This document shows, in pieces, positions 17,689 to 35,358 of a stretch of DNA of 64,000 nucleotides. The translations under genes were made by a program, and so were the position numbers. A model generated the notes under the pieces. That model was given only the letters and a program-made list of their open reading frames with translations, was not told the origin of the DNA and searched no databases. The DNA comes from Candidatus Hydrothermarchaeum profundi (lineage in GTDB: Archaea; Hydrothermarchaeota; Hydrothermarchaeia; Hydrothermarchaeales; Hydrothermarchaeaceae): contig MTMF02000009.1 of NCBI GenBank assembly GCA_002011125.2, forward strand, positions 1,128,989 through 1,192,988. Reading direction: 5' to 3'. Within the stretch, counting starts at the first letter, position 1. Each line of letters begins with the position of its first letter.

Positions 17689-18705
17689 TTATGAATCAAA
17701 ATAGGGATACCCCCTTATAGGAATTATAGTACCACATCTTGGACATTTATTCCCCTCCAGATGCCACTCGACTATCCCATAGCCTTCTCTCCTTATTAAC
17801 AACTTCTTACATTTTTCGCAATACGTATTCTTTCCTGGATGTGAAAAGATATTTTCTAGATACACATATTTTAGCCCTTTACTATATGCTAGATTTAATG
17901 CCTTCTCCATAATTTTTTCAGAAGGCGAATCAATTTTGTCCATTTTATAGCTTGGAAAGAATCTCAACAAGATCAGTGGAGAGTCAGCTTTTTTACTTAA
18001 ATGTATAGCTTCAGAAAGATTTTTTTCGTCATCATTAAAGCCGGGTATTATAACATAAACCAGCTCCAAATGCGTATTTTTACTTTTAAAAATATCTATT
18101 AAACGTAATAAATGAGTGTTATTAAATTTAAATCCACATACTTTAGAATAGAACTCTTGGTTACCCTTCACAGTCAAGGCAACCGCGTCTATATACTCAC
18201 AGATGGTTTTCAAGCCTTCAGGGGATATCAGTCCGTTAGTGGCAAATACGTTTAGGAGCCCATTTCCTTTAGCAAGCTCCATTATCTTAGCGTAGTATTC
18301 TATATTAAGAGTAGGCTCTGAATGGGTATATACTACACCTCTGCACTTCAGTTGTTTAGATGCTTCAACTATTTTATCGGCTTTAATATACTCCGCTCTA
18401 AATTCTTCCGGTTCTACTTGTGTTATACTCCAGGTTAAACAAAAAGCACATTTTAAGTTGCAACCAAAACTTCCTACAGTGATAAATCTGTGGTTAGGGT
18501 AAAAATGGTATAAAGGAGTTTTTTCAATGTAATCTGTGCTGAAACTTGAAAGCTTCTCATAGATTGTATTGTAAAGTTTTCCTTTTACATTAATTCTAAC
18601 CTTACAGAATCCTCTCTCACCCTCTTTTAAAAAACAATAGTGAGTACATAGCCGACAGTTTACTATGTTGTTTTTAAAAGAGCGATAACAGCAAGCTTCT
18701 TCCAT
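17689..18705 (-). CDS. AmmeMemoRadiSam-type (PflA-like) radical SAM enzyme
   Basis: N-terminal CRLCTHYC..GFCKVR, IEKTPLYHFYP, GCNLKCAFC, SEPT, IPGFND, C-terminal CEKC..IRREGY..CPRC. Confidence 0.85.
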   Translation of the reverse strand: MEEACCYRSFKNNIVNCRLCTHYCFLKEGERGFCKVRINVKGKLYNTIYEKLSSFSTDYIEKTPLYHFYPNHRFITVGSFGCNLKCAFCLTWSITQVEPEEFRAEYIKADKIVEASKQLKCRGVVYTHSEPTLNIEYYAKIMELAKGNGLLNVFATNGLISPEGLKTICEYIDAVALTVKGNQEFYSKVCGFKFNNTHLLRLIDIFKSKNTHLELVYVIIPGFNDDEKNLSEAIHLSKKADSPLILLRFFPSYKMDKIDSPSEKIMEKALNLAYSKGLKYVYLENIFSHPGKNTYCEKCKKLLIRREGYGIVEWHLEGNKCPRCGTIIPIRGYPYFDS

Positions 18706-18737
18706 AGATTAAGACATCTATTTAACTTTAAGAAACT

Positions 18738-19937
18738 TCACATTAATTTGCTTAAGAAATAGCTAATAAGTTTCTCAGGTTTTTCTTGATCGGCTTCTAT
18801 GGTCAAGAAAGGTATGTCCACTCGAGATTTAATCTCACGATATGCATTGTAGACAGCTGAAGTCCCAAAGGGGCATTGCTTATTATATATTACTGCATCG
18901 ATCTCGTGGTATTTTATAAGATCTAGAAAGTCCCTTGCGGTTTCCTTGATTGTACCCATTCCAGAATGTCCTGCGTACCATTTAGCGAGAGCTCTGAGAG
19001 GGTCAGAATCGTCTTTTATTAGCTTTCTATGAGAAGTAAATCTCTGGTAGGGCCATCCCGCCGTAACAATACCCTTACTCTCCTCTATCGCATAGAGGAA
19101 CTCATTTCTAAAGCCTCCTGCGAGTAGGATTTTTTTACCCTCATATCCAATTCCTTGTTCTACCCTCTCTTTAAGTTCATTTTTAAGGATATAGCACGCC
19201 CCGAGTAATTCCTGCGTTATGCCTCCGATATAGTCTGTACATATTACCTTCAAGTTGTAGATGTCAAAACTTTTAAGTGGATGGGGCTCTTGTTTTACTA
19301 GATTATCGATTTCCTGAAACACTCGTGTGACATCGTTTGTAAGTTCAATGCTCTGCTGAAGGCTTTCATCTGTTATTTCTGTGCCGGCTAGTTTCTCTAA
19401 TTTATCTTTTAAATAGCACAGTTTATCATATATGGCTCTTTCCCTCTCCTTCCTTGTGAGACCTTCCTCAATTTCTATAAAATCAAATTCCCATTCCTGG
19501 CCAATTTTACGTAGCAGTATATTCCACTCTGGGATCTTCGGCACGAAATCTGTTATCACTAGATCATACCCGGGGCATGCACCTAAAATGGGGGACCCAG
19601 CAGCACCGCTAACATATCTACATACGCATTCTCCGATTCCAAAATGATAAATCCACTTGCTGAGTTTATAATCTCCTTTTATAATCGTTCTATTTAAGTC
19701 CTCTCTCCTCTTGTATATTATTGAAAAAACGTTAGCTGCTCTCAATACCTCTATTGGAGGATTAGCGAGGGTACCTACAACTTTTCCGCCTTTTTTAATA
19801 TGTTTTGCCCAGTTGTCCCACACACTGGCATTATGCTGGTAAATTAGTCTTATTCCCTCTAATTCTCTGATATCGCTGTAGAGAGGTAGAGCTTTTTCAT
19901 CTACTGAAAGAGCAGTTCTTGAGTACATGTAAGACAA
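18738..19937 (-). CDS. 2-hydroxyacyl-CoA dehydratase (HgdB/FldB/BcrC-like) family subunit, divergent
   Basis: KVVG..PPIEVLRAA, CVCRYV, LEKLAGTEITDESLQQSIELTN, IDAVIY..QC, DIPFLTIEAD. Confidence 0.72.
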   Translation of the reverse strand: MSYMYSRTALSVDEKALPLYSDIRELEGIRLIYQHNASVWDNWAKHIKKGGKVVGTLANPPIEVLRAANVFSIIYKRREDLNRTIIKGDYKLSKWIYHFGIGECVCRYVSGAAGSPILGACPGYDLVITDFVPKIPEWNILLRKIGQEWEFDFIEIEEGLTRKERERAIYDKLCYLKDKLEKLAGTEITDESLQQSIELTNDVTRVFQEIDNLVKQEPHPLKSFDIYNLKVICTDYIGGITQELLGACYILKNELKERVEQGIGYEGKKILLAGGFRNEFLYAIEESKGIVTAGWPYQRFTSHRKLIKDDSDPLRALAKWYAGHSGMGTIKETARDFLDLIKYHEIDAVIYNKQCPFGTSAVYNAYREIKSRVDIPFLTIEADQEKPEKLISYFLSKLM

Positions 19938-19987
19938 CCCTATTAACCTCTCCTCTACGTCTATCTATCTAGCTATTTCTTGGATGA

Positions 19988-20980
19988 TTATTGTATAAAA
20001 GATTTTTGGACCTTTAATATCCCCTGCCGGAATTCTACTTTATCGTATATATCGTAGTAGAAGGTCATCTCTCTTTTTTCAATTTGCTTCATTCCTTTTT
20101 TGCCTAGTGTTATTTCTATACATGTTGAATTGAAATTGGGATCATATTGTGGTCTCCATAGAGCTATCTCCCAGAGGTCTTGTGGATAGAAATCTTCTTT
20201 ATATCTTGAGGTAATTGGCTCAAGGATTATCATAGTGCCTCCTTTTTTCACAACTCTACAAGCGTCAGCTAGAACTTCCTGAGGGTTGGAGACATATTCT
20301 AGGAGAGCATCACATACCACAAGATCAAAAGCTTCTTCCTTGAACGGAAAGCCAACCTCAGCATCATAAGCGATGAAACTAGCCGAGCTACTCCGTAGCC
20401 ATTCTTTAGTTCTTTTAAGGATTTCCATAGATATATTAAGGCATGTTAGACTACCCTTTTTGTCGTAGTATCTCAAGTATTCTTTAATTCCGGTAGATGC
20501 ATCTAAGACTAATAGTTCCCTAGTGGTTTTTCCCAATTCTAGGAAATTCTTAATCCTTTCTTCCCTTAGCTCAAAAGGCTCTGAGATATTGCCTTTTCCA
20601 AGAGGCATTTGCTCATATAAGTTGTAAAATTTTTTTCTTGGTATAAACTCTATTAAATATCCTCTATTCTTTGTAAGATTTCTAGCTCTCCCTCGGTTAT
20701 CTAAAAATACTTCATATTTCTCTTTATTTTTTTCAAATACCGCTATTATGGTCCTATCAGATTTCTCTAAATATGATAACGTAAAGGGACTTCCAGAGCC
20801 TAGGTATGGTCTAATCACGACCCAGCAGAAGCCTTCTCTCAACTCATTACTTGTGTGTAACTTGCAGAGGATACCCTCACTAAAGAGCTTTTTTATTTCA
20901 TAACCGTAATTAGTTTTTCTGCATTGTCCAAAAGTATGTATAGCTCTTTTCCTGCCTTTTCTAAGACCTATCCTCTGCAT
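19988..20980 (-). CDS. Class I SAM-dependent methyltransferase with N-terminal extension
   Basis: C-terminal VLDASTG, DAEVGFPFKEEAFDLVVC, LEYV, RVVKKGG. Confidence 0.75.
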   Translation of the reverse strand: MQRIGLRKGRKRAIHTFGQCRKTNYGYEIKKLFSEGILCKLHTSNELREGFCWVVIRPYLGSGSPFTLSYLEKSDRTIIAVFEKNKEKYEVFLDNRGRARNLTKNRGYLIEFIPRKKFYNLYEQMPLGKGNISEPFELREERIKNFLELGKTTRELLVLDASTGIKEYLRYYDKKGSLTCLNISMEILKRTKEWLRSSSASFIAYDAEVGFPFKEEAFDLVVCDALLEYVSNPQEVLADACRVVKKGGTMIILEPITSRYKEDFYPQDLWEIALWRPQYDPNFNSTCIEITLGKKGMKQIEKREMTFYYDIYDKVEFRQGILKVQKSFIQ

Positions 20981-21010
20981 AAGAATGATTAGAATAGTAA
21001 TTCTGGGATA

Positions 21011-21781
21011 TTATAATTTTCTAATTTTAAAAATTCCTGCACATGTTTTGCAGAGAACTTCACTGTTCCTTGTTATAGTTCTGGAACTCTCCACGTATTC
21101 TCCGCAGTCATCGCAGTTAATAGGGTTTGTTATATACTGTTGATCTAGAGGATATTGCAATTTTTTTGGGTCGACCTTTACGCTGGTGACAATGAATAGT
21201 TCGTCGTCATCCATTTTGTGCCACTTTCTTATTAACTTGGCTTCCTCTTCATCTAATTTTGCTCTTGCATTACGTGCTTCTTCTAGAGTTCTGTCTTTCA
21301 GTTTTAAATAAAATTCATTAAGTTTTTTTCCATACTCGATATGTTCTTTATCTACTTCTGGTCTGAGGGATACTCTAACAGCTTTACCTGTTCTACGATT
21401 ACAGAAAATAGAGGAGAACTTTCCATGATCTAGAAATACCAGTCTACCGCTCCCAAAGCTACATGTTGTTGCACTTGCAATGCCATCAGCAGCGCATGTA
21501 AGAATTTCCACTGCGGCACAAAGATCTTTCTTTCTCTCTAAATCTAGATAAGTAACAGCAAGTAAAGCCATTCTCGCCCCAAGATAAGAAGCCGTACAAA
21601 CATGGCCATGGATCTTTGGAACAATTTTGAGAGTTTCTTTTAGTGAAGGGAACTCTACTCTACCTTTTCTTTTTTTCTCTAAAAAAGGCTCAATATCAAA
21701 TTCTGGAATAGCCATAATTGGAATTTCAAATGAAGTTAGTGATAAAATTATCTGAGTGAAAATTTTATAAAAAGGAGCCAT
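21011..21781 (-). CDS. FmdE family protein with C4 zinc finger
   Basis: IHGHVCTASYLGARM, EILTCAADGI..TTCSFG, CDDCGE...CKTC. True start is probably the internal Met (MAIPEF). Confidence 0.85.
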   Translation of the reverse strand: MAPFYKIFTQIILSLTSFEIPIMAIPEFDIEPFLEKKRKGRVEFPSLKETLKIVPKIHGHVCTASYLGARMALLAVTYLDLERKKDLCAAVEILTCAADGIASATTCSFGSGRLVFLDHGKFSSIFCNRRTGKAVRVSLRPEVDKEHIEYGKKLNEFYLKLKDRTLEEARNARAKLDEEEAKLIRKWHKMDDDELFIVTSVKVDPKKLQYPLDQQYITNPINCDDCGEYVESSRTITRNSEVLCKTCAGIFKIRKL

Positions 21782-21802
21782 TCGAGGTGTAGATAGCGCT
21801 TT

Positions 21803-23137
21803 TCATGTAGCATGTAATGCAATGCTTCTGAAAGATTTCCTCTCCAGGCCCTCACTAATCTTAGTGACCATAGGCTTCTCTTCTAATACCTCTATATCAG
21901 GTAGTGTAGTGTTCATTATTCTTGTAATAGAATCGAAGAGCATTCTCCTCAAGTCGCTATTAGAAAAGTTCTGGGTTTCTATAACTGGATTGAGATGATG
22001 ATACTCACGCCATTGGCGAGTAAGAATCTTTATTCCGATATTCTCGGCTTTCCTGTAGAGATAACTTCCTGGGTAGGGAGTCTGAACTGCGAAAGTAACT
22101 TCTCCTCCTAGTTTTTTGATTTTTAAGGCTAATTTTAAAGTAGCTTTAAATTCCTTTTCAGTCTCAGTAGGATGTCCTATCATGAATCCACATACTGGTG
22201 TGATGCCTTCTTGGACAAAGTTTTTTACAATTCTTAGAACTTCTCTTATTCGAATACCTTTATTTATCAAGTCCACAAGTCTTTGAGAGCCGCTCTCTAT
22301 CCCAAACCGCCCTACTTTACAGCCTGCCTTGGCCATTGCCGTGATGACTTCACTGTCGACATGATCCAATCGTAGTTCAGTGAGCCATTCCATATCCAGT
22401 TTTTTAACAGAGTTGCAGATTTCTAATACTCTTCTTTTATCAAATGCGAAATTAGGGTCTATAATGAAAAAAGAATCAAACCCTAGACTTTGGATGTATA
22501 TTAACTCGTCAACGACTTTTTCAGCTTTTCTAAGCCTAAGACGGCCGGCAATACTTCTAGCACAACAATATCTACAGTAATACGCACATCCCCTGCTGGT
22601 AGCAACTGCGCCGGGGTATGTGTATTTCCACAAATCCAATAGATGACGTGCTGGTAGAGGTAAAGAATCAAGATCTTTAACTCTGTGGCTTCCGTTTTTT
22701 CGAATTTTGTTATTTTCTTTATACACCAGACCCTTTATTGTTGGTGTGGTCCCTTTTTCAAGAGCTTTAAGTAGCTCACCTATTACTAGTTCACCTTCAC
22801 CTACCACTACAAAGTCGAATCCGTCATCTAAAACCTCATCCGGCAAAGCAGTCGCGTGAGGCCCCCCTATTATAACTTTCTTTTTTTGCTTTTTAGCTAA
22901 ATAAAGTATCTTGAGAGCTTCGTGATAGTTATTGGTGTAGCAAGAGACTCCTATTAGTTTTGCTTTTTTTATTTTTCTTTCAAGTTTTTCATTTGTGACG
23001 TTTAAGTCGATTATACCGGTTTTAAAGCCTCCTTGTTCAGCTAAAGCGGCAATATAAGCGACTCCAAGTGGAGGAACAGTTATATCTGCTTCTGAAATAC
23101 TTCTAGACTGCCTAACTTCTACTAATAATAAATCCAT
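21803..23137 (-). CDS. Cobalamin-dependent radical SAM protein (class B methyltransferase-like)
   Basis: PPLGVAYIAA, IGGPHAT, VVGEGE, TSRGCAYYCRYC, FGIESGSQ, FMIGHPTET, TPYPGS. Confidence 0.92.
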   Translation of the reverse strand: MDLLLVEVRQSRSISEADITVPPLGVAYIAALAEQGGFKTGIIDLNVTNEKLERKIKKAKLIGVSCYTNNYHEALKILYLAKKQKKKVIIGGPHATALPDEVLDDGFDFVVVGEGELVIGELLKALEKGTTPTIKGLVYKENNKIRKNGSHRVKDLDSLPLPARHLLDLWKYTYPGAVATSRGCAYYCRYCCARSIAGRLRLRKAEKVVDELIYIQSLGFDSFFIIDPNFAFDKRRVLEICNSVKKLDMEWLTELRLDHVDSEVITAMAKAGCKVGRFGIESGSQRLVDLINKGIRIREVLRIVKNFVQEGITPVCGFMIGHPTETEKEFKATLKLALKIKKLGGEVTFAVQTPYPGSYLYRKAENIGIKILTRQWREYHHLNPVIETQNFSNSDLRRMLFDSITRIMNTTLPDIEVLEEKPMVTKISEGLERKSFRSIALHAT

Positions 23138-23138
23138 C

Positions 23139-23399
23139 TCAAATCTCCACTAGTCCTAAAGTTTTTAGTTTCTCAATAAAATCCGCAATTTCTTTTTCGG
23201 TAGCCGCCCTAAATTTTCTTTTATATAACTCAACTATTCCTGTTTCATCAACTTCCCCTATCAATTTCCATATAAAAGTAGCTTTTTTATTGAGTATGTA
23301 AAGACCCTTATTAGTTGCAATATATGTCTTTTCTCTTTCTTCTTTCCATAATACCTTGGCTTTAATAGGGACTGCATTATTTAATTTTATAGAAGACAT
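23139..23399 (-). CDS. PqqD-family protein (RiPP recognition element-like)
   Basis: 86 aa; LYILNKKATFIWKLI and DFIEKLKTLGLV fit the PqqD pattern. Ends 1 nt before the B12 radical SAM start. Confidence 0.75.
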   Translation of the reverse strand: MSSIKLNNAVPIKAKVLWKEEREKTYIATNKGLYILNKKATFIWKLIGEVDETGIVELYKRKFRAATEKEIADFIEKLKTLGLVEI

Positions 23400-26848: not shown

Positions 26849-27736
26849 TTAGAATAAATAGCAATGATCGCATTCAGCCTCGTAAGTTTCGTTATATTTT
26901 TTCATTATCTCTGGCGAGAGGTATGGAGGTATTCTCCTAAGAGCTTCTTCAAAGTGCCGGGCCTCTAAACTGTCAAATTCCTCACCCTTTTCACGGATAG
27001 CTATTATTTTAGCTTCCCTCACTACTCCTTCGATATCTGCTCCCACGTAGAATTCAGTTTTCTCTGCCAGATCTTCTAGTGAGACATCCTTTGATAAGGG
27101 GGTTCCTTTTAGATGAATCCTAAATATTTCTATACGTCCTTCATAGTCGGGAGCAGGAACATATATTTTCTTTTCTAATCTCCCTTTCCTTAATAACTGA
27201 GGATCAACCACGTCAGGACGATATGTACCCCCAATGGTTATTACGTCCTTACGACTGCTCATCCTATCAAGTTGTTCGTATAAGATCTTCGTAGTTTCTG
27301 TCGGAGCTAATCTTAGTGGAGCATCCCTAGTATGACTAATGGACCAAGGCAACTGCTGCTTCCTATTTGGTGCCAATGCATCTATTTCGTTAATAAATAC
27401 CACAGTTGGTGCTAACTCCAAAGCGGTGTCATACATCCTTTCTATTTCCTCGGGTTCGCTAATTATCTCTATGGCTTTTACTGTGATGTAACTGGCGTCA
27501 GCAGACTTTGCAGCTGCCTCAGACAATATAGTTTTTCCTCCGCCTGGAGGCCCCCATAGGAAAATACCGCTTGGTGGTTTTAATTCTACTTTGGCAAAAA
27601 TATCTGGCAATTTGAGAGGTAGAGATACCATCTCTCTTAAACGTTCTTTTGCATCGGTTAATCCACCAATCTCCTCCCAGCTCCATTTAGGTTCTTTTAT
27701 TCTGAAGTAGTCTCCCTGTCCGTTAACCTTTTTCAT
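26849..27736 (-). CDS. Single-domain Cdc48-like AAA+ ATPase, paralog 1
   Basis: WEEIGGL, GPPGGGKT, FINEID, RPDVVDPQLLRKGRLEKKIYVPAPD, YVGADIE. Confidence 0.9.
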   Translation of the reverse strand: MKKVNGQGDYFRIKEPKWSWEEIGGLTDAKERLREMVSLPLKLPDIFAKVELKPPSGIFLWGPPGGGKTILSEAAAKSADASYITVKAIEIISEPEEIERMYDTALELAPTVVFINEIDALAPNRKQQLPWSISHTRDAPLRLAPTETTKILYEQLDRMSSRKDVITIGGTYRPDVVDPQLLRKGRLEKKIYVPAPDYEGRIEIFRIHLKGTPLSKDVSLEDLAEKTEFYVGADIEGVVREAKIIAIREKGEEFDSLEARHFEEALRRIPPYLSPEIMKKYNETYEAECDHCYLF

Positions 27737-27786
27737 TATAGTATGTTGGATTGCTCACAAAAATATAAAATTAATGGAAGTATCAT

Positions 27787-28215
27787 ATGATATCCATGGA
27801 TTGCGAGTTTTGTGGAAATAAAATCATCCAGTATGGACTTTTTCCAAGGAGTTATAGACTTTATATTTATTTCTGCAAGCGTTGTCTAAGAGCTTTTTTG
27901 GCTCATCACTTTGATCTCAACCTAGAGATTTATCGAATTCAGGATCTGGATGTCAAAAAGAATGGCGAACTATTTTTCTTTTCAGGCCTCAAAGTTGAGC
28001 CAAGGGTTTTTGATTTTAAGGTAGATAGGAGTATAGATGCAGTAATCGTCGCATATAAAAATGATGTTCTAGGTGAACTTGCTAAGACGGATGGCTACAT
28101 ATATGCTCCTTATTCTAGGAAAGCGTTAAACACATTATGTAGATACCTAAAAGAAAAATGCGATATTGGTATAGTAACAAAAAAAGTTGCAGAGTTGTGG
28201 GAGCGAGCTGAATGA
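27787..28215 (+). CDS. Hypothetical protein with N-terminal CxxC-x20-CxxC zinc ribbon
   Basis: CEFCG...FCKRC; overlaps the next ORF by ATGA. Confidence 0.65.
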   Translation: MISMDCEFCGNKIIQYGLFPRSYRLYIYFCKRCLRAFLAHHFDLNLEIYRIQDLDVKKNGELFFFSGLKVEPRVFDFKVDRSIDAVIVAYKNDVLGELAKTDGYIYAPYSRKALNTLCRYLKEKCDIGIVTKKVAELWERAE

Positions 28216-28484
28216 TAGAAGAAATCGAAAAATATGTAGCTAGGATATTTGAGAACTTAAGTCCTTCCCAAAAAGCAACTTTAAAAGCTCTCATGTTTTC
28301 TGGATTTAAAGGGGAACGAGACCATATATTGCTCGAGCTTCTAAAAGAAATGGGAGAGGATAAAATATCTCATAGTGAACTCACTGAGTCTTTTACTTGT
28401 TCATTCGAGGGGGTACTTGTTAATTATTCGAGGATAAAGCCGGAATATTATAGAGCTGTTAGAAAGTTGCTCATGAAAAGTTAG
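28212..28484 (+). CDS. Hypothetical protein
   Basis: 90-aa ORF translationally coupled to the upstream gene; no recognised motif. Confidence 0.55.
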   Translation: MIEEIEKYVARIFENLSPSQKATLKALMFSGFKGERDHILLELLKEMGEDKISHSELTESFTCSFEGVLVNYSRIKPEYYRAVRKLLMKS

Positions 28485-29055
28485 AATAGCAAGGTATGCA
28501 AAGTAGTTTTCCATTTTTAACCTTAACATAATCTTTAAGAACAACCTCGCCGCACCTTTGGCATATCTCATGTTTTAGTGATGGTTCTTCAGCTGGTTTA
28601 AAAAGCGGAGCTTCGGAGAAAGAAAATAGCTTTTCATCGGGGAGCTTATTAAGTTCTTCTACAATCTCTGCGCCGGATTTAAAATGTTCTCTTGCTTCTT
28701 CTTCCCTATTCGAAGGCGGAAGCTTCTTAACTTCTTGTCCTTTTAATCCAAATTCCAAGACTTTTTCTAGGATGTCTCGTTTTACACTTATCCTAACAGA
28801 CCTACTATTAGCTAGATCATAGAAAGATGCAGCGAATTTTCCATAATCTAAGCAATAAAGATTATTTTTACCATATGTAGTTCCACAGACGTATTGTAAG
28901 CCATCTGAAAGACAGTTTTTGTATTCTACCACTGCTATAAGCTTTACACCGTTCTCTCTGGGTCTTCCAAGCACTTCAAGCGCCTTTTTACCCATTCTTA
29001 TGCCGAGAGCATACATCGGACACATGTGTCCGTGAAACCATCGAGGATCCTCCAT
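28471..29055 (-). CDS. FmdE family protein with C4 zinc finger
   Basis: FHGHMCPMYALGIRMG, EYKNCLSDGLQ..CGTTYGK, CQRCGE...CIPC. Confidence 0.88.
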   Translation of the reverse strand: MEDPRWFHGHMCPMYALGIRMGKKALEVLGRPRENGVKLIAVVEYKNCLSDGLQYVCGTTYGKNNLYCLDYGKFAASFYDLANSRSVRISVKRDILEKVLEFGLKGQEVKKLPPSNREEEAREHFKSGAEIVEELNKLPDEKLFSFSEAPLFKPAEEPSLKHEICQRCGEVVLKDYVKVKNGKLLCIPCYSNFS

Positions 29056-29092
29056 GATATCTTTTTTAATACCTTATTATAAAGAATTTGTG

Positions 29093-29818
29093 ATGAAGAA
29101 AAAAATACAGGAATACTACTCCCGGAGGGCTGAGACCTATAGTGATTTAGATGCCCCAGCGACAATAGTCTCCGCAGTTAGATTTAGAGGGGTATTGGAT
29201 CATTTAAAAATAATATCTCCAAAAGAGAATGAAAGGATACTCGACATAGGGTGTGGTACTGGAAGATTTCTACAACCATTTTCTAAGGCAAAGGTTTGTG
29301 GTGTTGATCTCACTCTTAATATGCTTAATAAAGCAAAAGGACATGCTCCTCTAGTAAGGGCGGACGCGGAACATCTCCCTTTTAAAGATGCATCTTTTGA
29401 CATCGCTCATTCAGCAGGGTTATTAGGCATCTATCGTTCGTCAAAAGTTCTAGAGGAGGCGGCGAGAGTCGTTAAGGAAAATGGTAAAATCTATATCAGT
29501 TTTCCAGCTGCAACCAGCGTGAGTGGGATAGTTTCATTAATATTTCAAAAATTATTCCGGTATAATCCTTCGCTATTTGACTATTGGTATACCAAAAAAG
29601 ACATACGGAGAATGTTTCCTCCAGAAGTCGAGCTAGTTAAAATTTATAGGTTGGGATGGGAGCCTCCTTTCCAAAGGTGGTTTAAAGAATTGGAATCTAG
29701 GAAGCTTGTTAAACTCTTCTTATTTCTTGAGAATATTTTGAAAAACAAGCCTTTTTTTAAATATTTTTGTGCGAGATTTTTAGCGGTAGGCGTAGTTGGA
29801 GCTAGTAGAAGCTCTTAA
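29093..29818 (+). CDS. Class I SAM-dependent methyltransferase
   Basis: ILDIGCGTG, GVDLT, ADAEHLPFKDASFD, RVVKENG. ATG 29093 preferred over 29054, which overlaps the divergent gene. Confidence 0.9.
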   Translation: MKKKIQEYYSRRAETYSDLDAPATIVSAVRFRGVLDHLKIISPKENERILDIGCGTGRFLQPFSKAKVCGVDLTLNMLNKAKGHAPLVRADAEHLPFKDASFDIAHSAGLLGIYRSSKVLEEAARVVKENGKIYISFPAATSVSGIVSLIFQKLFRYNPSLFDYWYTKKDIRRMFPPEVELVKIYRLGWEPPFQRWFKELESRKLVKLFLFLENILKNKPFFKYFCARFLAVGVVGASRSS

Positions 29819-29925
29819 ATAAGGCGGCATCTGTGTTATTATCTTATAGGATAGAATTTTAAAAAAATTAATATAATTTGACCGATTTTTCTCTATTTGA
29901 TTAGATTATTGGAGGTGAAAATCTA

Positions 29926-30342
29926 ATGTCTTTGCCGGAGGATTTCCATGAGATATTTAGCAATTATTGTGCTTCTGGCAGACCTATAGTATGGGTCTCT
30001 ACGATTGATGACGGAACACCGCATCTTGTTCCCGTATGTTTTGTTAAGGTTTTAGGGGAAGATAAGATTCTAATCGCTAATGTCTTTATTAAAAAGACGG
30101 TTAGGAACATAGAGAAAGGCTCTAAAATAGCAGTCGGGGCAGTTGTAAAAGAAGACGGTTTTAAGGGGTACATGATTAAAGGTAGAGCAGAAAACCTAAA
30201 AGAAGGAAAGCTTTTTGAGGACTTCGCTAAAGAGGTTTCAGATAAAAGTGGCGGTAGAAGGAAGCCAAAATCTGCAGTACTAGTAACGATAGAAGAAGTT
30301 TATTCTTTAAAACCATATGAAGGGCGTAAGAGGATTATTTAA
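29926..30342 (+). CDS. Pyridoxamine 5'-phosphate oxidase-like FMN-binding protein
   Basis: VSTIDDGTPH, KKTVRNI, GYMIKGRAE, EEVYSL. Strong SD GGAGGTGA at 29911. Confidence 0.85.
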   Translation: MSLPEDFHEIFSNYCASGRPIVWVSTIDDGTPHLVPVCFVKVLGEDKILIANVFIKKTVRNIEKGSKIAVGAVVKEDGFKGYMIKGRAENLKEGKLFEDFAKEVSDKSGGRRKPKSAVLVTIEEVYSLKPYEGRKRII

Positions 30343-30344
30343 TA

Positions 30345-30740
30345 TCACCATAACTCTTTTATCTTACCTAGGATGTATTTTTCAATCCCGAACTCTGCGT
30401 CTTTATTCGGGATCATAACCAGAGCCTTCCATGGAATTCCTAAGTCCCAGACAGCTCTCGCCCTTCTATGACCGTCGATCAGTATATCTTTATCAGGCTT
30501 TCTGAGAATGATTATAGGACAGGCATAGCCATGTTCTATTGCCTTCTTTATTTCCACAACTTTTTTAGCAAAGGTAACGCGGTTCTCTTCTCCCGGAAAG
30601 GTGTAGTGGACATCTCCTAGCTTACTTTTATCTATTATCTCCTCTTTTTCCTCAAATTTCAATTCTTCATGGACAGCTTCATAAGACCTTATTACATCCT
30701 TAAACAGGATCTTCTCCTCATATTCCTGAATCAATGTCAT
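30345..30740 (-). CDS. Stand-alone ParB/sulfiredoxin-like domain protein
   Basis: AIEHGYACPIII..ILIDGHRRARA. ATG 30740 preferred because the called start overlaps the upstream AAA gene. Confidence 0.72.
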   Translation of the reverse strand: MTLIQEYEEKILFKDVIRSYEAVHEELKFEEKEEIIDKSKLGDVHYTFPGEENRVTFAKKVVEIKKAIEHGYACPIIILRKPDKDILIDGHRRARAVWDLGIPWKALVMIPNKDAEFGIEKYILGKIKELW

Positions 30741-30774
30741 GTTAATCCAATATATTTCTTCATTTTTAAAGCTT

Positions 30775-31653
30775 TCAAAAATTGTATTTATGGATGCAAT
30801 CTTCTGAGATGATTTTGTTGTAGTCCTCTGCCATCGCATGTGATAACCAGGGTTTTATTTTTTCTTTTGCTTCTAGCATATCCCTCATGGTGACATAGGA
30901 TGAGTTGTTGCCTGACCTTTCTAGCGTGTTTAGAATCGCTTTCCTACATAGAGCTTCTAAGTCCCATCCCACATAATATTCTGTGATTTCAGCGATTTTT
31001 TTTAAGTTCACATCATTAGCTAGTTTAGCATTTCTCAGATAATATTTCAAAATTTTTAATCTATCGCTTTTATTTGGCATTGGAACGTATATTTTTCTAC
31101 CTAACATGTTGGTTCTGGTAAAAGCCTGATCTAGAACGTCTATTCGATATGAAGATGCCGCTACTATTATGCTATCGACAGAGGCGACTCTCTCTACTTC
31201 TTTATAGACAGTTTGATGAACTTGGGGAGTTCCAAATTTATCAGGCTTGCCTGTTGTCGTGCCATCCTTCCACCTATAATCTGCACCTTCTCTAGGACAA
31301 AGCCAATCTATATCCATTAAGTGGACTACGCAGGGGGCATTCTTTAATGCTAACTGGAATCCCTTTTTTATGACTTCTGGCTTGTCTGTGCATTCTCTCC
31401 CCCTTATTAAAATATAATTAGTTCCAGCCTCCTTTGCTGCAGCCTCTATCAAATGTCCTTTTCCAGTACCTAGCGGTCCCCATACTATCACTCCGGTTGG
31501 CGGAGTTAATGAAGCTTTTTTTAATTCTTCACGATATTTTAGAGGAACTACGATCATCTCTCTAAATTTTTCTTTAACATTTTCGTAACCAGCTATTTGT
31601 TCAAAACTAAACCTCGGTTCTCTCATATCTATGTATATCTGGTCGTAGTCCAT
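30775..31653 (-). CDS. Single-domain Cdc48-like AAA+ ATPase, paralog 2 (degenerate)
   Basis: FEQIAGY, GPLGTGKG, HLMDID, RIDVLDQAFTR..MLGRKIYVPMP, YVGWDLE. ATG 31653. Confidence 0.88.
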   Translation of the reverse strand: MDYDQIYIDMREPRFSFEQIAGYENVKEKFREMIVVPLKYREELKKASLTPPTGVIVWGPLGTGKGHLIEAAAKEAGTNYILIRGRECTDKPEVIKKGFQLALKNAPCVVHLMDIDWLCPREGADYRWKDGTTTGKPDKFGTPQVHQTVYKEVERVASVDSIIVAASSYRIDVLDQAFTRTNMLGRKIYVPMPNKSDRLKILKYYLRNAKLANDVNLKKIAEITEYYVGWDLEALCRKAILNTLERSGNNSSYVTMRDMLEAKEKIKPWLSHAMAEDYNKIISEDCIHKYNF

Positions 31654-31666
31654 AGGAGTCCCCCTT

Positions 31667-32539
31667 TTAGTACATGTATCTGTGCTTACACTCTTCTTTG
31701 TAAATCTCTTCATATCTGCTTATAAGTTCTGGTGAAAGTGAGGGAGGTATCCTTTTCATCGCTTCCTTAAAGTGTCGTAGTGATACTTTTTCGAACGTCT
31801 TGCCATTCTCCTTTATTGCGATTAAGGTGGCTTCTCGTGGGAGAGATATTAAATCCGAACTAGAATAGTTTTCAGTAATTTCAGATATTACCTCAGGCGA
31901 TGCATCTTCTGCGAGAGGAATTTTTTTAAGGGACAGCCTTAGAATTTCTAATCTATCATAGTAGTCTGGCGCGGGAACGTATATTTTTCTATCTAATCTT
32001 CCATTACGGAGTAAGGCAGGGTCGATTATATCTGGGCGGTTGCTTCCTCCAATCGTAATAACTTTATCATTTTTTGCAGATTTATCGATTTCACGTAAGA
32101 ATCTCCTAGTAGTGTTAGGAGGAGCTATTTTACGTGGGGGTTCTAAAAGACCCGATTGAGCTTCTCGCCTTGGGGCTAATACTTCGATTTCATTAATGAA
32201 AATAACACATGGGGCAATCTTAGTTGCATCTTTGTACAGGTGTGTTATCTGATGTTCGTTTTCAATTATCCTAGAAGCTTCTACGGAGATATACATAGCA
32301 TTGGCATCTGAAGCAGCCGCTTCGGCTAAAGTACGCATGCTTGTTTTTGGGGGACCCCACATTAGTATTCCATTTCTTGGTCTTAGGTCAGCTTTTTTAA
32401 AAGCCTCTGGATATTTTAAGGGTAAGGATACCATTTCTTCTAATCTTTTTTTTACCTCTGTAAAGCCTCCAATATCTTCAAATTTGATTACCGCTTCCCT
32501 TATTTTATAGCACTGACCGGGATCGAGTATCTCGCACAT
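31667..32539 (-). CDS. Single-domain Cdc48-like AAA+ ATPase, paralog 3 (Walker A degenerate)
   Basis: FEDIGGF, GPPKTSMRT, FINEIE, NRPDIIDPALLRNGRLDRKIYVPAPD. Confidence 0.88.
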   Translation of the reverse strand: MCEILDPGQCYKIREAVIKFEDIGGFTEVKKRLEEMVSLPLKYPEAFKKADLRPRNGILMWGPPKTSMRTLAEAAASDANAMYISVEASRIIENEHQITHLYKDATKIAPCVIFINEIEVLAPRREAQSGLLEPPRKIAPPNTTRRFLREIDKSAKNDKVITIGGSNRPDIIDPALLRNGRLDRKIYVPAPDYYDRLEILRLSLKKIPLAEDASPEVISEITENYSSSDLISLPREATLIAIKENGKTFEKVSLRHFKEAMKRIPPSLSPELISRYEEIYKEECKHRYMY

Positions 32540-32541
32540 AG

Positions 32542-33603
32542 TTAGGCCTTCCCAAATTTTCTTGAAGCATTTACCATTGCATAAAGGTTTTTAAAAGGAG
32601 TCTGCGAGTGGAGACCACAACTACTAGAGACTATATAACTATACTTCCCAGCTTTATTGATGCAGTTTTTGACGTTCTCTTCAACATCTCGTTCAGACCC
32701 CTTGTGGAGAGTGCCCACAGAGACGTTTCCGAAAAGAGCGACTTTATTTCCAACTTCTTTCATTGCTTTATTAAGATCTACTGACTCATCTACACTCAAG
32801 CAAACTGCCCCAGTCTTTGCGAGGTCTTTGAGTATAGGGGAAGTGTCTCCACATATGTGTATAATAACTTCCCCCCCGTACTTCCTTAGAGCGCTACAAA
32901 CTTTTTTTTCATAAGGATATGCGAACTCCCTATAATGTTTTGGTGAGATAACTTGCGATGCTGCAGAAGGATCTTCGATCATGATTCCGTGAGTACCTAT
33001 ATCTATTTGCTTCTTCCCGATCTCTATAGCAGCCTCAGCCATGAAATTTAAGAGCTTGTGAACTTCATTTTTTCTTATACTCATATCCAGCATGAAGTTT
33101 TCCATACCTCGAATCCATTCAGCGGCATAATGAAATGGTGCAGGCACTTTACTGCAGATATATACCTCCCCCTTAGTTATCTTAAGTAGTTCTTGCAGGG
33201 GCTCCCACCTTTCTTCATTATCTGTGTCGGGCATTTTTAATTCGTCTAGCTGTGAATAGTCACTTATAGCAGGTTCCCTCACAGCAGGTCCTCCATTAAG
33301 AGGTATCTTAAGCTTAGTTCCCCACTCAGTTGGCAATACCGCATATCCATCAATTATTTTTAAGCTCTTACGTTCCTCTTTGGTAATTCCTTGTATTGGC
33401 TGATGATTGAATATCCAGTCGTATCCGTACTTCCTCTGTGCTTTTAACTGTCCTTTTACGTAGAGTTCATTATTAGTAACGTATTCCCAAGGCTTTACTC
33501 CTAAAACTTTAGAGGCATGAGGGACATTGACCATTGGGGCTACCGGTAGATAATCTAGTGAATCTCCTTCTAACGCAGCTCTGAATCTTTCAACAGATTT
33601 CAT
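32542..33603 (-). CDS. MtaA/CmuA (UroD-fold) methylcobamide:thiol methyltransferase
   Basis: ERFRAAL, PVAP, IRGMENFMLDM, EDPSA..VISP, zinc ligands IHICG and SSSCG, GNV. Confidence 0.88.
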   Translation of the reverse strand: MKSVERFRAALEGDSLDYLPVAPMVNVPHASKVLGVKPWEYVTNNELYVKGQLKAQRKYGYDWIFNHQPIQGITKEERKSLKIIDGYAVLPTEWGTKLKIPLNGGPAVREPAISDYSQLDELKMPDTDNEERWEPLQELLKITKGEVYICSKVPAPFHYAAEWIRGMENFMLDMSIRKNEVHKLLNFMAEAAIEIGKKQIDIGTHGIMIEDPSAASQVISPKHYREFAYPYEKKVCSALRKYGGEVIIHICGDTSPILKDLAKTGAVCLSVDESVDLNKAMKEVGNKVALFGNVSVGTLHKGSERDVEENVKNCINKAGKYSYIVSSSCGLHSQTPFKNLYAMVNASRKFGKA

Positions 33604-34226
33604 TTCTTCTCCCTCATGATCCTCTCGCAGAGAAGTACTGCTTTTCTAGCGTCACTGCCATAACCTTGGACACCAAGCTCTTTTGCATACTCTTCAGTAG
33701 CGGCAGCTCCCCCAATAATAAAAGCATATTTTTCCCTTAAACCATGTTTTTCGAATTCTTCTATTACCCTTTTCATCCCCTCAATAGTGGTGGTCATCAT
33801 TGCGGATAATCCTACAATATCCGCCCTGAACTCTTTTGCCTTCTCTACGAAGTCTATGGCAGGTATATCTCTTCCAATATTGTACACCTTAAAGCCTGCT
33901 CCTTCTAAGAACATTGCTACGAGGTTCTTTCCTATATCATGAACATCGCCTTCGACACTTCCTATTACTATTCTTCCTGTGGCCTCTGATTTTTCATAGT
34001 CTAATAGAGGCTTAAGGATATCAAGGCCTCTCTGCATAGCATAAGCAGATAATAATGTTTCAGGAACATAGTACTCTTTTTTCTCAAATTTTTCTCCTAC
34101 TATCTCCATGCCTGAGATCATTTCTCTGAGGATTTCCTCAGGTTTAAGGCCATTATCAAGAGAGTTTCTAATGAGAGTTTCTATGTTATCTATATCCCCA
34201 TTAATGACGGCTTCTTTAATGGACAT
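33600..34226 (-). CDS. Methyltransferase corrinoid protein (MtaC/MtbC-like)
   Basis: Cap domain GMEIVGEKFE..YYVPE; EGDVHDIGKNLV, GLSAMMTTT, IIGGA. Confidence 0.95.
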   Translation of the reverse strand: MSIKEAVINGDIDNIETLIRNSLDNGLKPEEILREMISGMEIVGEKFEKKEYYVPETLLSAYAMQRGLDILKPLLDYEKSEATGRIVIGSVEGDVHDIGKNLVAMFLEGAGFKVYNIGRDIPAIDFVEKAKEFRADIVGLSAMMTTTIEGMKRVIEEFEKHGLREKYAFIIGGAAATEEYAKELGVQGYGSDARKAVLLCERIMREKK

Positions 34227-34341: not shown

Positions 34342-35358
34342 TTAGCGTCTTGTATTGTAGGAGACTTTCACCATCTCTGTTATATTTTCTTCTCTAGCAC
34401 TTCGTGGGACTACGCATCCAGAACTTAGGACTACCCTTTCCTGTAGTTCCACGACTTTCTCAGAGATTTTTCTAATTTCTGATGGAGTGCCTCTAAAGAG
34501 TAGATTGGAAGGTACATTTCCCCATGCAGGTATTTTTTCCCAGACTAATTTTATGTCAGTCATTTCATCGAAACTCAAGCAACTCGCTCCGGTTCTACTC
34601 ACATCGTCTAGTATTTTACTGATATCTCCGCATATATGGAGTATTACTGGTACATCCTTTGTTATTTCTTTTATAAGTCTGCGTTCATATTTGAAGACAA
34701 ATTTTCGGTAATCTTCAGGGGAAATTAGTGATGAAGAAGCTGATGAATCTGGTATAAAAATCGCATGTGCTCCTACTTCAATCTGAGCTTTGGCGATTTC
34801 TAGGCAGCGATCAAGTGAAAAATCGAGTAGTTTTAAGATAAAATCTCTATCTTTTTTCATCTCTACCAAAAATTTTTCAAGAGGATATAAGAAGGTTGAA
34901 GCAAAAGTAAATGGAGCTCTAGTTGTACCGCAAACAAAATCTTCTTTTTCAAGCATATATCTTAGCGGCGCCGTCCTTTCTTTTGAGAATTGATCTGGGA
35001 TATTAATTTTGTCAAGCTCTTCCTTGCTTTTTAACGCAGGCTCTAAAGTTTGAGGCGACCCATGGGAAGATAGCAGTATCTTAGTTCCTAACTCTAACTG
35101 TAGAATAACTCTATCGTCTTGGTAAATTACATTTTTCCTCTCCCACTTGGTGATTCCTTGAAACGGTTGATGAGCCCAGACCCAATCATACCCATGATGA
35201 CGTTTACATGCAATCTGGGCTTCTGCATATTTTTTATTATCCAACACATACTCTTGGGGACTAATACCATATATTTTTGAAGCATAACCAGAGGTTATTA
35301 GAGGCGCAACCGGGACTCTCTCAACTTTCTTGCCTGTGAGGGTTTCTAGTATATTCAT
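34342..35358 (-). CDS. Second MtaA/CmuA (UroD-fold) methyltransferase
   Basis: RVPVAP, APFT, PDSSAS..LISP, LHICG, WGNV, LSSGC. Confidence 0.86.
   Translation of the reverse strand: MNILETLTGKKVERVPVAPLITSGYASKIYGISPQEYVLDNKKYAEAQIACKRHHGYDWVWAHQPFQGITKWERKNVIYQDDRVILQLELGTKILLSSHGSPQTLEPALKSKEELDKINIPDQFSKERTAPLRYMLEKEDFVCGTTRAPFTFASTFLYPLEKFLVEMKKDRDFILKLLDFSLDRCLEIAKAQIEVGAHAIFIPDSSASSSLISPEDYRKFVFKYERRLIKEITKDVPVILHICGDISKILDDVSRTGASCLSFDEMTDIKLVWEKIPAWGNVPSNLLFRGTPSEIRKISEKVVELQERVVLSSGCVVPRSAREENITEMVKVSYNTRR

Follow-up and report, generated by a model that had tools for sequence, protein, structure and literature searches.

What maintains three AAA proteins with damaged active sites in the genome of an archaeon? 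We addressed this question for a locus of Candidatus Hydrothermarchaeum profundi (contig MTMF02000009.1, positions 1,128,989 to 1,192,988; this whole stretch of 64,000 nucleotides is referred to as the window). Three AAA paralogues with differently broken catalytic motifs, named here A, B and C, are encoded in it, two of them next to genes for a corrinoid protein and for MtaA-like methyltransferases. The reading that we favour is that A, B and C would form a hetero-oligomeric, ATP-binding ring that does not thread its substrates and that serves one corrinoid methyl-transfer cassette. We give this whole reading a probability of about 0.5; its parts are graded separately below. A literature search found no paper describing the AAA trio, the genes of which could be listed in the supplementary tables of Hydrothermarchaeota papers. 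The accessible parts of PMC6775978, PMC6946796 and PMC9635834 do not mention the trio genes, and PMC5852551, as far as its available text goes, concerns ordinary Cdc48.

A, B and C are single-domain relatives of the D2 domain of Cdc48

The preliminary description of this locus, made from the DNA letters, had recognized three Cdc48-like AAA paralogues without an N domain. This assignment was borne out by family profiles and by structure comparisons. All three proteins matched PF00004 (85.2, 53.9 and 77.6 bits for A, B and C, respectively; gathering cut-off 21.2). The lid domain AAA_lid_3 (PF17862) was matched by A and B (49.8 and 43.1 bits; cut-off 27.2), and C, with 20.7 bits, was below the cut-off but aligned throughout. 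On the CDC48 model TIGR01243 the scores of 238 (A), 170 (B) and 210 (C) bits were all far under the cut-off of 802.65, and the alignments covered only the D2 half of the profile (positions about 440–730 of 733). The trio stands outside the CDC48 family proper, as each member has a single AAA domain (290–312 amino acids) and neither an N domain nor D1. It also stands outside the PAN family (TIGR01242; 199, 135 and 169 bits for A, B and C versus a cut-off of 500), being devoid of the N-terminal domain and having a Tyr third from the end instead of the penultimate Tyr of PAN (the PAN of the same genome ends with MYT). Among the Pfam and NCBIfam models the trio matched AAA families only, and the C-terminal domain of RACo (RACo_C_ter, PF14574) was not among the matches.

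Among solved structures, VAT D2 is the closest relative of A (about 200 bits). The AlphaFold2 (AF2) model of A, with a predicted local distance difference test score (pLDDT) of 90.5 and low values at residues 1–7 and 133–139 only, best matched the p97 D2 subdomain 3cf0_A (template modelling (TM) score 0.80). From the D2-only profile alignment and these nearest structures, we concluded that A, B and C are single-domain, N-domain-less relatives of Cdc48 D2. The longest open reading frame (ORF) of B overlaps C by 47 nt; the start of B is uncertain, as several orthologues begin at the position of Met22 (31650).

The motif defects are conserved and appear to be complementary

We aligned A, B and C with the Cdc48 D1 and D2 domains of related genomes and with the PAN of the same genome. 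All these references carry K-aromatic-x-G-E in pore-loop 1, Asp-Glu in Walker B, the sensor-1 Asn and R-P-G-R at the arginine fingers. The Walker A, Walker B and arginine-finger motifs given in the preliminary description (Table 1) proved to be correct, and none of the three proteins has a canonical Walker B. We add to that list a change of the sensor-1 Asn to Tyr in A and B. In A, Walker A is intact (K68 and T69), Walker B has Asn116-Glu117, sensor-1 is Tyr172 and the second arginine, R186, is kept. In B, Walker A has the form GPLGxG[KR][GA], in which the Thr is lost, Walker B is Met-Asp, and the first arginine (R200) is kept and the second lost. C has lost both the Lys and the Thr of Walker A (M68 and R69) and has kept both arginine fingers, R178 and R181.

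The same alignment traced the missing aromatic pore-1 loop, which had also been noted earlier, to a common 5-residue deletion that removes pore-loop 1 from A, B and C. Pore-loop 2, on the other hand, is enlarged; its insert is 11 residues long in A and in B, and 6 residues long in C. As no member seen has retained pore-loop 1, the earlier view that these proteins are not classical unfoldases is supported, and a ring that does not thread is the likely form of any assembly.

Next, we looked at how far these states are shared. Orthologues were taken from the related genomes and from a collection of 5.8 billion proteins, and the motif census comprised 119 sequences (48 A-type, 55 C-type, 8 B-type and 8 of an intermediate form, C' (C-prime), which is described below). 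The motif states were fixed within each orthologue group. The Walker A Lys and Thr, the Asn-Glu pair, the sensor-1 Tyr and the second arginine were present in 48/48 A-type proteins, in which the first finger position is Lys in 43/48; the protein encoded in the window is the only one with Arg there (residue 183). Among the C-type proteins, the Walker A Lys was found in 0/55 and both arginine fingers in 55/55. All eight B-type proteins have Gly-[Lys/Arg] without Thr, Met-Asp, the sensor-1 Tyr and the first arginine, and all have lost the second. Each group has also acquired positions of its own: W131 and T136-R-D-A-P140 in the pore-loop-2 insert are invariant in A, His87, Cys108 and G155-K-P157 are invariant in B, and Cys2 is near-invariant in C. 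With every state fixed within its group, the pattern reflects neither chance nor decay.

Decaying paralogues, that is, pseudo-enzymes en route to loss and without a function of their own, would deviate from the canonical AAA motifs, as all three proteins do. The reading frames of the trio are, however, intact in all the genomes carrying them, and the group-specific invariants include new ones. The preliminary description had named local decay as one way in which its proposal could fail, and had suggested the ratio of non-synonymous to synonymous substitution rates (dN/dS) as a check. The orthologues keep the non-canonical motifs, the trio co-occurs as a set (see below), and the ratios of 0.068 (A), 0.16 (B) and 0.043 (C) speak for purifying selection; they come from the genomes G026 and G032, the sole unsaturated pair, as dS was saturated in more distant pairs. 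We consider the idea of decaying paralogues to be of negligible probability and local decay as the origin of the broken motifs to be excluded by the conservation data. The motif defects of A, B and C are conserved and complementary.

In A, B and C, conservation is highest in the C-terminal tails. These have a common pattern, acidic-Cys-x-His-x-Tyr-x-Phe/Tyr, which reads E-C289-x-H291-C292-Y-L-F in A, D-C306-x-H308-K-Y-N-F in B and E-E-C284-K-H286-R-Y-M-Y in C. In the C-type tails the Cys, the Tyr and the final Tyr are present in 55/55 and the His in 54/55 proteins. This conservation could be explained if the ring docked on the alpha ring of the 20S proteasome through a Cdc48-type tail, as a cap or regulator that does not unfold but opens the gate or blocks Cdc48 and PAN. 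Several local Cdc48 proteins end with hydrophobic-Tyr-[LM]-x (LVYLQ, LVYMA and LSYMR), and a Tyr at the third position from the end is likewise found in A (CYLF), B (KYNF) and C (RYMY). However, the tail of the trio is 6–7 residues shorter than that of Cdc48, its invariant Cys and His are additions that do not have a counterpart in Cdc48, and the Tyr is replaced by Ser in 7/48 A-type proteins. Moreover, the Tyr of the canonical HbYX (hydrophobic-Tyr-any residue) motif is the penultimate residue, as it is in the organism's own PAN, and docking on the proteasome would leave the strict linkage to one methyltransferase cassette (see below) unexplained. We regard this explanation as improbable.

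Phylogeny points to a possible two-gene intermediate

We placed A, B and C in a tree with Cdc48 D1 and D2, obtained by a quick search with the Shimodaira–Hasegawa-like approximate likelihood ratio test (SH-aLRT) as the single support measure. A, B and C were each monophyletic (SH-aLRT 99, 100 and 97, respectively), and the clade uniting them (100) was sister to the local Cdc48 D2 domains (93), with D1 outside. The alignment and tree that the preliminary description had called for thus yielded separate clades that are jointly sister to Cdc48 D2. B was the first branch within the trio and a long one, and the internal topologies of A, B and C were similar.

In a larger tree, the C' proteins (eight, plus one from the locus L054) were basal or paraphyletic to A and C. 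They combine an A-like intact P-loop and Asn-Glu with C-like arginines and the RYMY tail. At L054, the C' gene directly precedes a B gene, and a separate A was not found in this genome (0.8 Mb, very incomplete). The simplest history for the trio would comprise three steps. A stand-alone D2-like protein would have duplicated to give a pair of proto-AC and B, proto-AC would have duplicated later, and A would then have retained the pocket and C the fingers. The traits of C' and the pairing, in one MAG, of C' with B alone fit a duplication followed by division of labour in a pre-existing hetero-complex.

The trio is inherited as a set

A, C and the MtaA-like protein URO-D353 were searched in 41 related genomes; the counts for B and for two genes of the second block described below (cl8 and the methyltransferase dependent on S-adenosylmethionine (SAM)) refer to the 38 genomes of the phylum. 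A-type genes were present in 10/41 genomes and B in 9/38. C was complete in nine genomes and cut by the contig end in G019 and G001. All three genes were complete in 9/41 genomes, and two more genomes hold parts that end at contig ends. We found no genome in which an intact locus holds just a single complete trio gene.

B was also sought outside this sample. A pattern scan of 185,579 species genomes gave nine B loci, all in Hydrothermarchaeota-type metagenome-assembled genomes (MAGs), one of which is labelled Methanocellales. A representative library of 1.84 billion proteins gave only one full-length 50%-identity representative of B and one fragment. A distant B-like protein, P0245 (37% identity to B), is encoded on the high-GC contig L056 (1913–2734). 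It has GPLGTG without the Lys, D-L-D-W-L in the Walker B region and the tail D-C-P-H-H-Y-N-F, and these features hint that the family may reach beyond the low-GC Hydrothermarchaeota sampled. The gene context of P0245 was uninformative, as L056 is 2.7 kb long and ends inside its gene; the loci L057 and L058 were unrelated or tiny.

Retention of the arginine fingers in 55/55 C-type proteins, which cannot bind nucleotide, is hard to explain for a homo-oligomer. Together with the strict co-occurrence of the three genes and the ancestor-like two-gene state, the invariant fingers of the P-loop-less C suggest one hetero-oligomeric ring, and we consider hetero-assembly of A, B and C to be probable. 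The proteins could instead act separately, as monomers or homo-oligomers. They would then be adaptors or regulators that need no nucleotide, with one of them for each methyltransferase component, for instance. That A is usually encoded apart from C and B and that each protein has a tail and loop signature of its own would be in keeping with this. The co-occurrence, the fingers of C and the C'-B pair all speak against separate action, as does the fold, which is that of a ring-forming AAA domain, and we find separate action unlikely.

Besides the trio, the genome of the window encodes PAN, ordinary Cdc48 copies and one more AAA protein. Its ordinary Cdc48 genes are located at contig ends of this genome, G000 (C8:276-1082, C19:276-1079 and C9:2-163), which suggests that near-identical Cdc48 copies break its assembly.

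C and B directly follow a corrinoid methyl-transfer cassette

The preliminary description had located two AAA genes directly downstream of the corrinoid and MtaA-like genes on the same strand, and had tied the trio to these neighbouring methyltransferases. The first statement holds, and the second is supported. C and B directly follow the genes for the corrinoid protein and for URO-D353 on the same strand, the stop codon of URO-D353 being 2 nt ahead of the start of C. The order corrinoid gene, URO-D353, C, B was found in 9/9 complete loci, with gaps that are often only a few bases or with overlaps, and also in the two further loci that end inside C (G019 and G001). Orthologues of URO-D353 (at least 68% identity) were present in 11/41 genomes, and 11/11 of these carry trio genes. 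The trio-less congeners (G028, G031, G033; G004, G021) have only paralogues of URO-D353 with at most 41% identity, and the genomes devoid of a URO-D353 orthologue include congeners that are 93–98% complete. This distribution indicates that the cassette and the AAA genes were gained and lost together. In addition, at least 15 further pairs of C-type and URO-D353 clusters agree in the length of their longest contig, which is an indirect sign of linkage. Taking the conserved gene order together with gain and loss as a unit, we regard a functional tie of the trio to the corrinoid cassette as highly probable.

The cassette comprises two MtaA-like proteins, URO-D353 and URO-D338, and a corrinoid protein that carries the cobalt-ligand motif D-x-H-x-x-G. 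URO-D353 has an invariant His249-x-Cys251 ... Cys329 and matches MtaA/CmuA-type models below their cut-offs. Orthologues of URO-D338 are encoded upstream of the corrinoid gene or, in G024, G026 and G032, adjoin A. An alignment-based prediction of a complex of C with URO-D353 gave a score of 0.18 (mark 0.32), which speaks neither for nor against binding.

RACo (PF14574) is present in two copies in the genome of the window, in 9/10 genomes with A and also in 14 trio-less genomes. In G012, it is encoded on the same contig, about 1 kb past the outer URO-D gene of the cassette, and the cassette of the window is without a RACo gene of its own. The trio as a stand-in for the classical corrinoid activase was rejected, since RACo is present alongside and is not simply replaced. 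The trio might also reductively activate the corrinoid protein at the expense of ATP, as an alternative or an auxiliary to RACo or RamA, whose conformational work it would perform with ferredoxin as the electron donor. Activating enzymes are often encoded at such an operon position, only A could bind ATP, and the absence of RACo from the window's cassette would fit. Against this stand the distribution of RACo just described, the weakened catalytic residues for hydrolysis and the lack, in the trio, of any redox-cofactor motif apart from the Cys/His tails. We consider such an activator role to be improbable.

A second, classical methyl-transfer island (G000:C9:1585385-1600528), about 430 kb from the window, encodes RACo, MtrH in two copies and four to five paralogues of the URO-D type; AAA genes were not noted in it. 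URO-D/MtaA-like paralogues with one or two in-frame TAG codons were observed at G026:C14:85757-86557, G032:C84:2770-3570 and G031:C18:2851-3648. These could represent pyrrolysine, a pseudogene or recoding; a preprint on codes with TAG as pyrrolysine reportedly mentions the phylum Hydrothermarchaeota.

A second conserved block is found next to A

A is located beside a block of four genes, cl8, cl7, FmdE-like and SAM-dependent methyltransferase, which is conserved across genomes and did not figure in the preliminary description of the trio. cl8 adjoins A in six genomes and is 1 kb from B at L054, where the C'-B pair is inside the block. It was found in 10/38 genomes, nine with trio genes plus G031, and the SAM methyltransferase in 8/38, seven with trio genes plus G031. 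The latter protein has a weak likeness to CpaM, the corrinoid protein-associated methyltransferase (35.5 bits versus a cut-off of 180).

The orphan proteins cl8 and cl7 have no match in Pfam or NCBIfam. The AF2 model of cl8 (pLDDT 91.6, predicted TM score 0.86) has an N-terminal CxxC...CxxC, a beta-rich body and two C-terminal helices. Comparison of cl8 with the PDB gave no convincing match (best Foldseek E-value 0.064; best VIA Z-score 4.9), and in the Atlas nothing was above chance (best feature score 0.86, structure TM at most 0.36).

Other features of the window are given in Table 1. The 164-residue ParB/RepB-like ORF is directly downstream of B, its longest form overlapping the end of B by 65 nt, and is not kept beside B in other genomes. 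Further upstream in the window, an additional cluster on the minus strand (17689–23399) looks like a peptide- or cofactor-modification set.

Table 1. Coordinates of the AAA genes and of other features in the window (positions are those of the window)
Feature	Coordinates	Strand	Length (amino acids)	Remarks
HGD-D-like protein	18738-19937	-		upstream cluster
SAM methyltransferase	19988-20980	-		upstream cluster
Second FmdE-like zinc-ribbon protein	21011-21781	-		upstream cluster
B12-binding radical SAM enzyme	21803-23137	-		upstream cluster
PqqD-like small protein	23139-23399	-		upstream cluster
AAA paralogue A	26849..27736	-	295	PF00004 and AAA_lid_3 matches; Walker A GPPGGGKT; Walker B FINEID; Arg-finger region LRKGRL
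cl8 orphan protein	27787..28215	+	142	divergent from A
cl7 orphan protein	28212..28484	+	90	always directly after cl8
FmdE-like protein, C-terminal zinc ribbon	28471..29055	-	194	PF02663 5.3e-33
SAM-dependent methyltransferase	29054..29818	+	254	last gene of block
ParB/RepB-like ORF	30345-30839	-	164	weak match, E about 4e-4
AAA paralogue B	30775..31713	-	312	length as longest ORF; PF00004 and AAA_lid_3 matches; Walker A GPLGTGKG; Walker B HLMDID; Arg-finger region TRTNML
AAA paralogue C	31667..32539	-	290	PF00004 match; Walker A GPPKTSMRT; Walker B FINEIE; Arg-finger region LRNGRL
URO-D353, URO-D/MtaA-like methyltransferase	32542..33603	-	353	PF01208 3.7e-64
Corrinoid (B12-binding) protein	33600..34226	-	208	PF02310 and PF02607; TIGR02370 1.8e-54
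URO-D338, second URO-D/MtaA-like methyltransferase	34342..35358	-	338	PF01208 2.2e-50

DISCUSSION

We propose that A, B and C would assemble into one hetero-oligomeric ring, probably with two copies of each subunit. With pore-loop 1 deleted, such a ring would be unable to thread substrates, and its nucleotide sites would be divided among the subunits. A, with a complete P-loop and the Walker B glutamate, would provide the only plausible ATP-binding, perhaps slowly hydrolysing, site. B would keep a phosphate-binding Gly-Lys without catalytic residues, and the fingers of the P-loop-less C would be useful only beside a nucleotide-binding neighbour. The most parsimonious ring order, obtained by preserving two ancestral interfaces, would direct the fingers of C to the pocket of B, the first arginine of B (R200) to the pocket of A and the weakened finger of A to the dead pocket of C; we take the conserved first arginine of B to correspond to the principal finger of p97 D2. 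The ring would be an accessory of one corrinoid cassette, consisting of two zinc-type MtaA-like enzymes and the corrinoid protein. It would most likely be an ATP-gated holder, assembly factor or regulator of the cassette proteins or of their cofactor, and not a reductive activase; the obvious candidates for binding clients are its conserved inserts in pore-loop 2 and its Cys/His tails. A specific role as a chaperone or scaffold is a tentative suggestion. The preliminary description had envisaged catalytic residues shared in trans and a metal/cofactor insertase or activase function; both stay hypothetical.

Several observations weigh against this proposal. The genome sample is small, with 38–41 related MAGs, many of them incomplete, and the genomes are not independent. 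The data show the sequence anatomy, its conservation under purifying selection, the co-occurrence, the gene order and the phylogeny; from these we infer the assembly, the order of the ring, the use of ATP and the biochemical role, and binding to the methyltransferase proteins is equally a proposal. The change of Asp to Asn in the Walker B of A and of Asn to Tyr at its sensor-1 may leave no hydrolysis at all. Parsimony and the p97 D2 arginine assignment, not a model, underlie the ring order. Furthermore, A is often on another contig or 3–5 kb off, beside the second block, and this block also occurs in G031, a genome in which the trio was not found. In G041, which is very incomplete (0.8 Mb), C'-B is in the block and no relative of URO-D353 was found. 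With A linked to the block, and C'-B found in it without URO-D353, the block rather than the corrinoid cassette could be the primary partner of the trio; otherwise, it may represent an additional component of the system.

A more specific role may be considered for the Cys and His residues. In a nucleotide-gated, non-threading AAA cage that handles the corrinoid, the Cys/His tails, Cys2 of C and the pocket His and Cys of B would either ligate cobalt during loading or repair of the corrinoid protein, or act as a protein-thiol partner of the MtaA-like enzymes. Zinc-type MtaA-like enzymes are expected to have a thiol partner, and McrA of methyl-CoM reductase and ComA of coenzyme M synthesis were not found in the genome of the window (G000, 97.65% complete). 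We regard such a cage, which would be a new kind of machine for the handling of corrinoids, as unlikely.

Among the known systems, the D2 domains of Cdc48, VAT and p97 are the closest to the trio in sequence and fold, and have the lid domain and a Tyr-containing C-terminal tail in common with it. The trio differs from these proteins in having no N domain, D1, pore-loop 1 or canonical Walker B, in its enlarged pore-loop 2, in the changed sensor-1 of A and B, in the shortened tail with its new invariant Cys and His, and in being three or two separate, co-inherited genes. Like the trio, Pex1/Pex6, Rpt1-6, RFC and BchI/BchD have paralogous subunits with unequal, partly dead sites, which are expected to complement each other across the interfaces. 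These hetero-rings, however, keep several active sites, and the unfoldases among them keep aromatic pore loops, whereas the trio, in its putative ring, appears to have at most one type of competent site per trimer and has no threading loop.

Sites of the NSF D2 or p97 D1 type use bound ATP chiefly to keep the ring assembled and hydrolyse little of it. The pockets of A and B could plausibly be compared with such 'structural' sites, but these belong to two-ring enzymes, which still have an active motor ring, and the trio is without any. RACo and RamA (RACE) resemble the trio in being accessory proteins encoded with corrinoid methyltransferase systems, and they are ATP-dependent; their fold (an ASKHA ATPase with an Fe-S domain) is unrelated, and they are present alongside the trio. 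Rubisco activase/CbbX, CobS/CobT and MoxR-type proteins provide the functional analogy behind the preliminary description, as each is an AAA+ ring that serves a single client enzyme or cofactor. Their ATPase is active, their pore or insert loops are functional and most of them belong to other AAA+ clades, and no sequence link of the trio to the activases or chelatase motors was found beyond the common AAA fold. Rubisco activase, an active AAA+ protein, may also depart from the canonical acidic pair; a literature search for a precedent of this kind found nothing.

AAA+ rings are usually viewed as motors. If our reading is true, the trio would show that, in nature, a domain of the Cdc48 type can lose its threading loop and distribute what is left of its ATP site over first two and then three obligatory paralogues, all of them under strong selection. 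With about 300 amino acids per subunit and an extant two-gene intermediate, it would offer a small system for the evolution of hetero-oligomeric pseudo-ATPase rings. It would also indicate that corrinoid methyl transfer in subsurface archaea that have not been cultivated involves an accessory factor hitherto unrecognized. Should the Cys/His tails make contact with the cofactor or with the zinc enzymes, the trio would represent a new class of helper of B12 systems beside the RACo/RamA activases.

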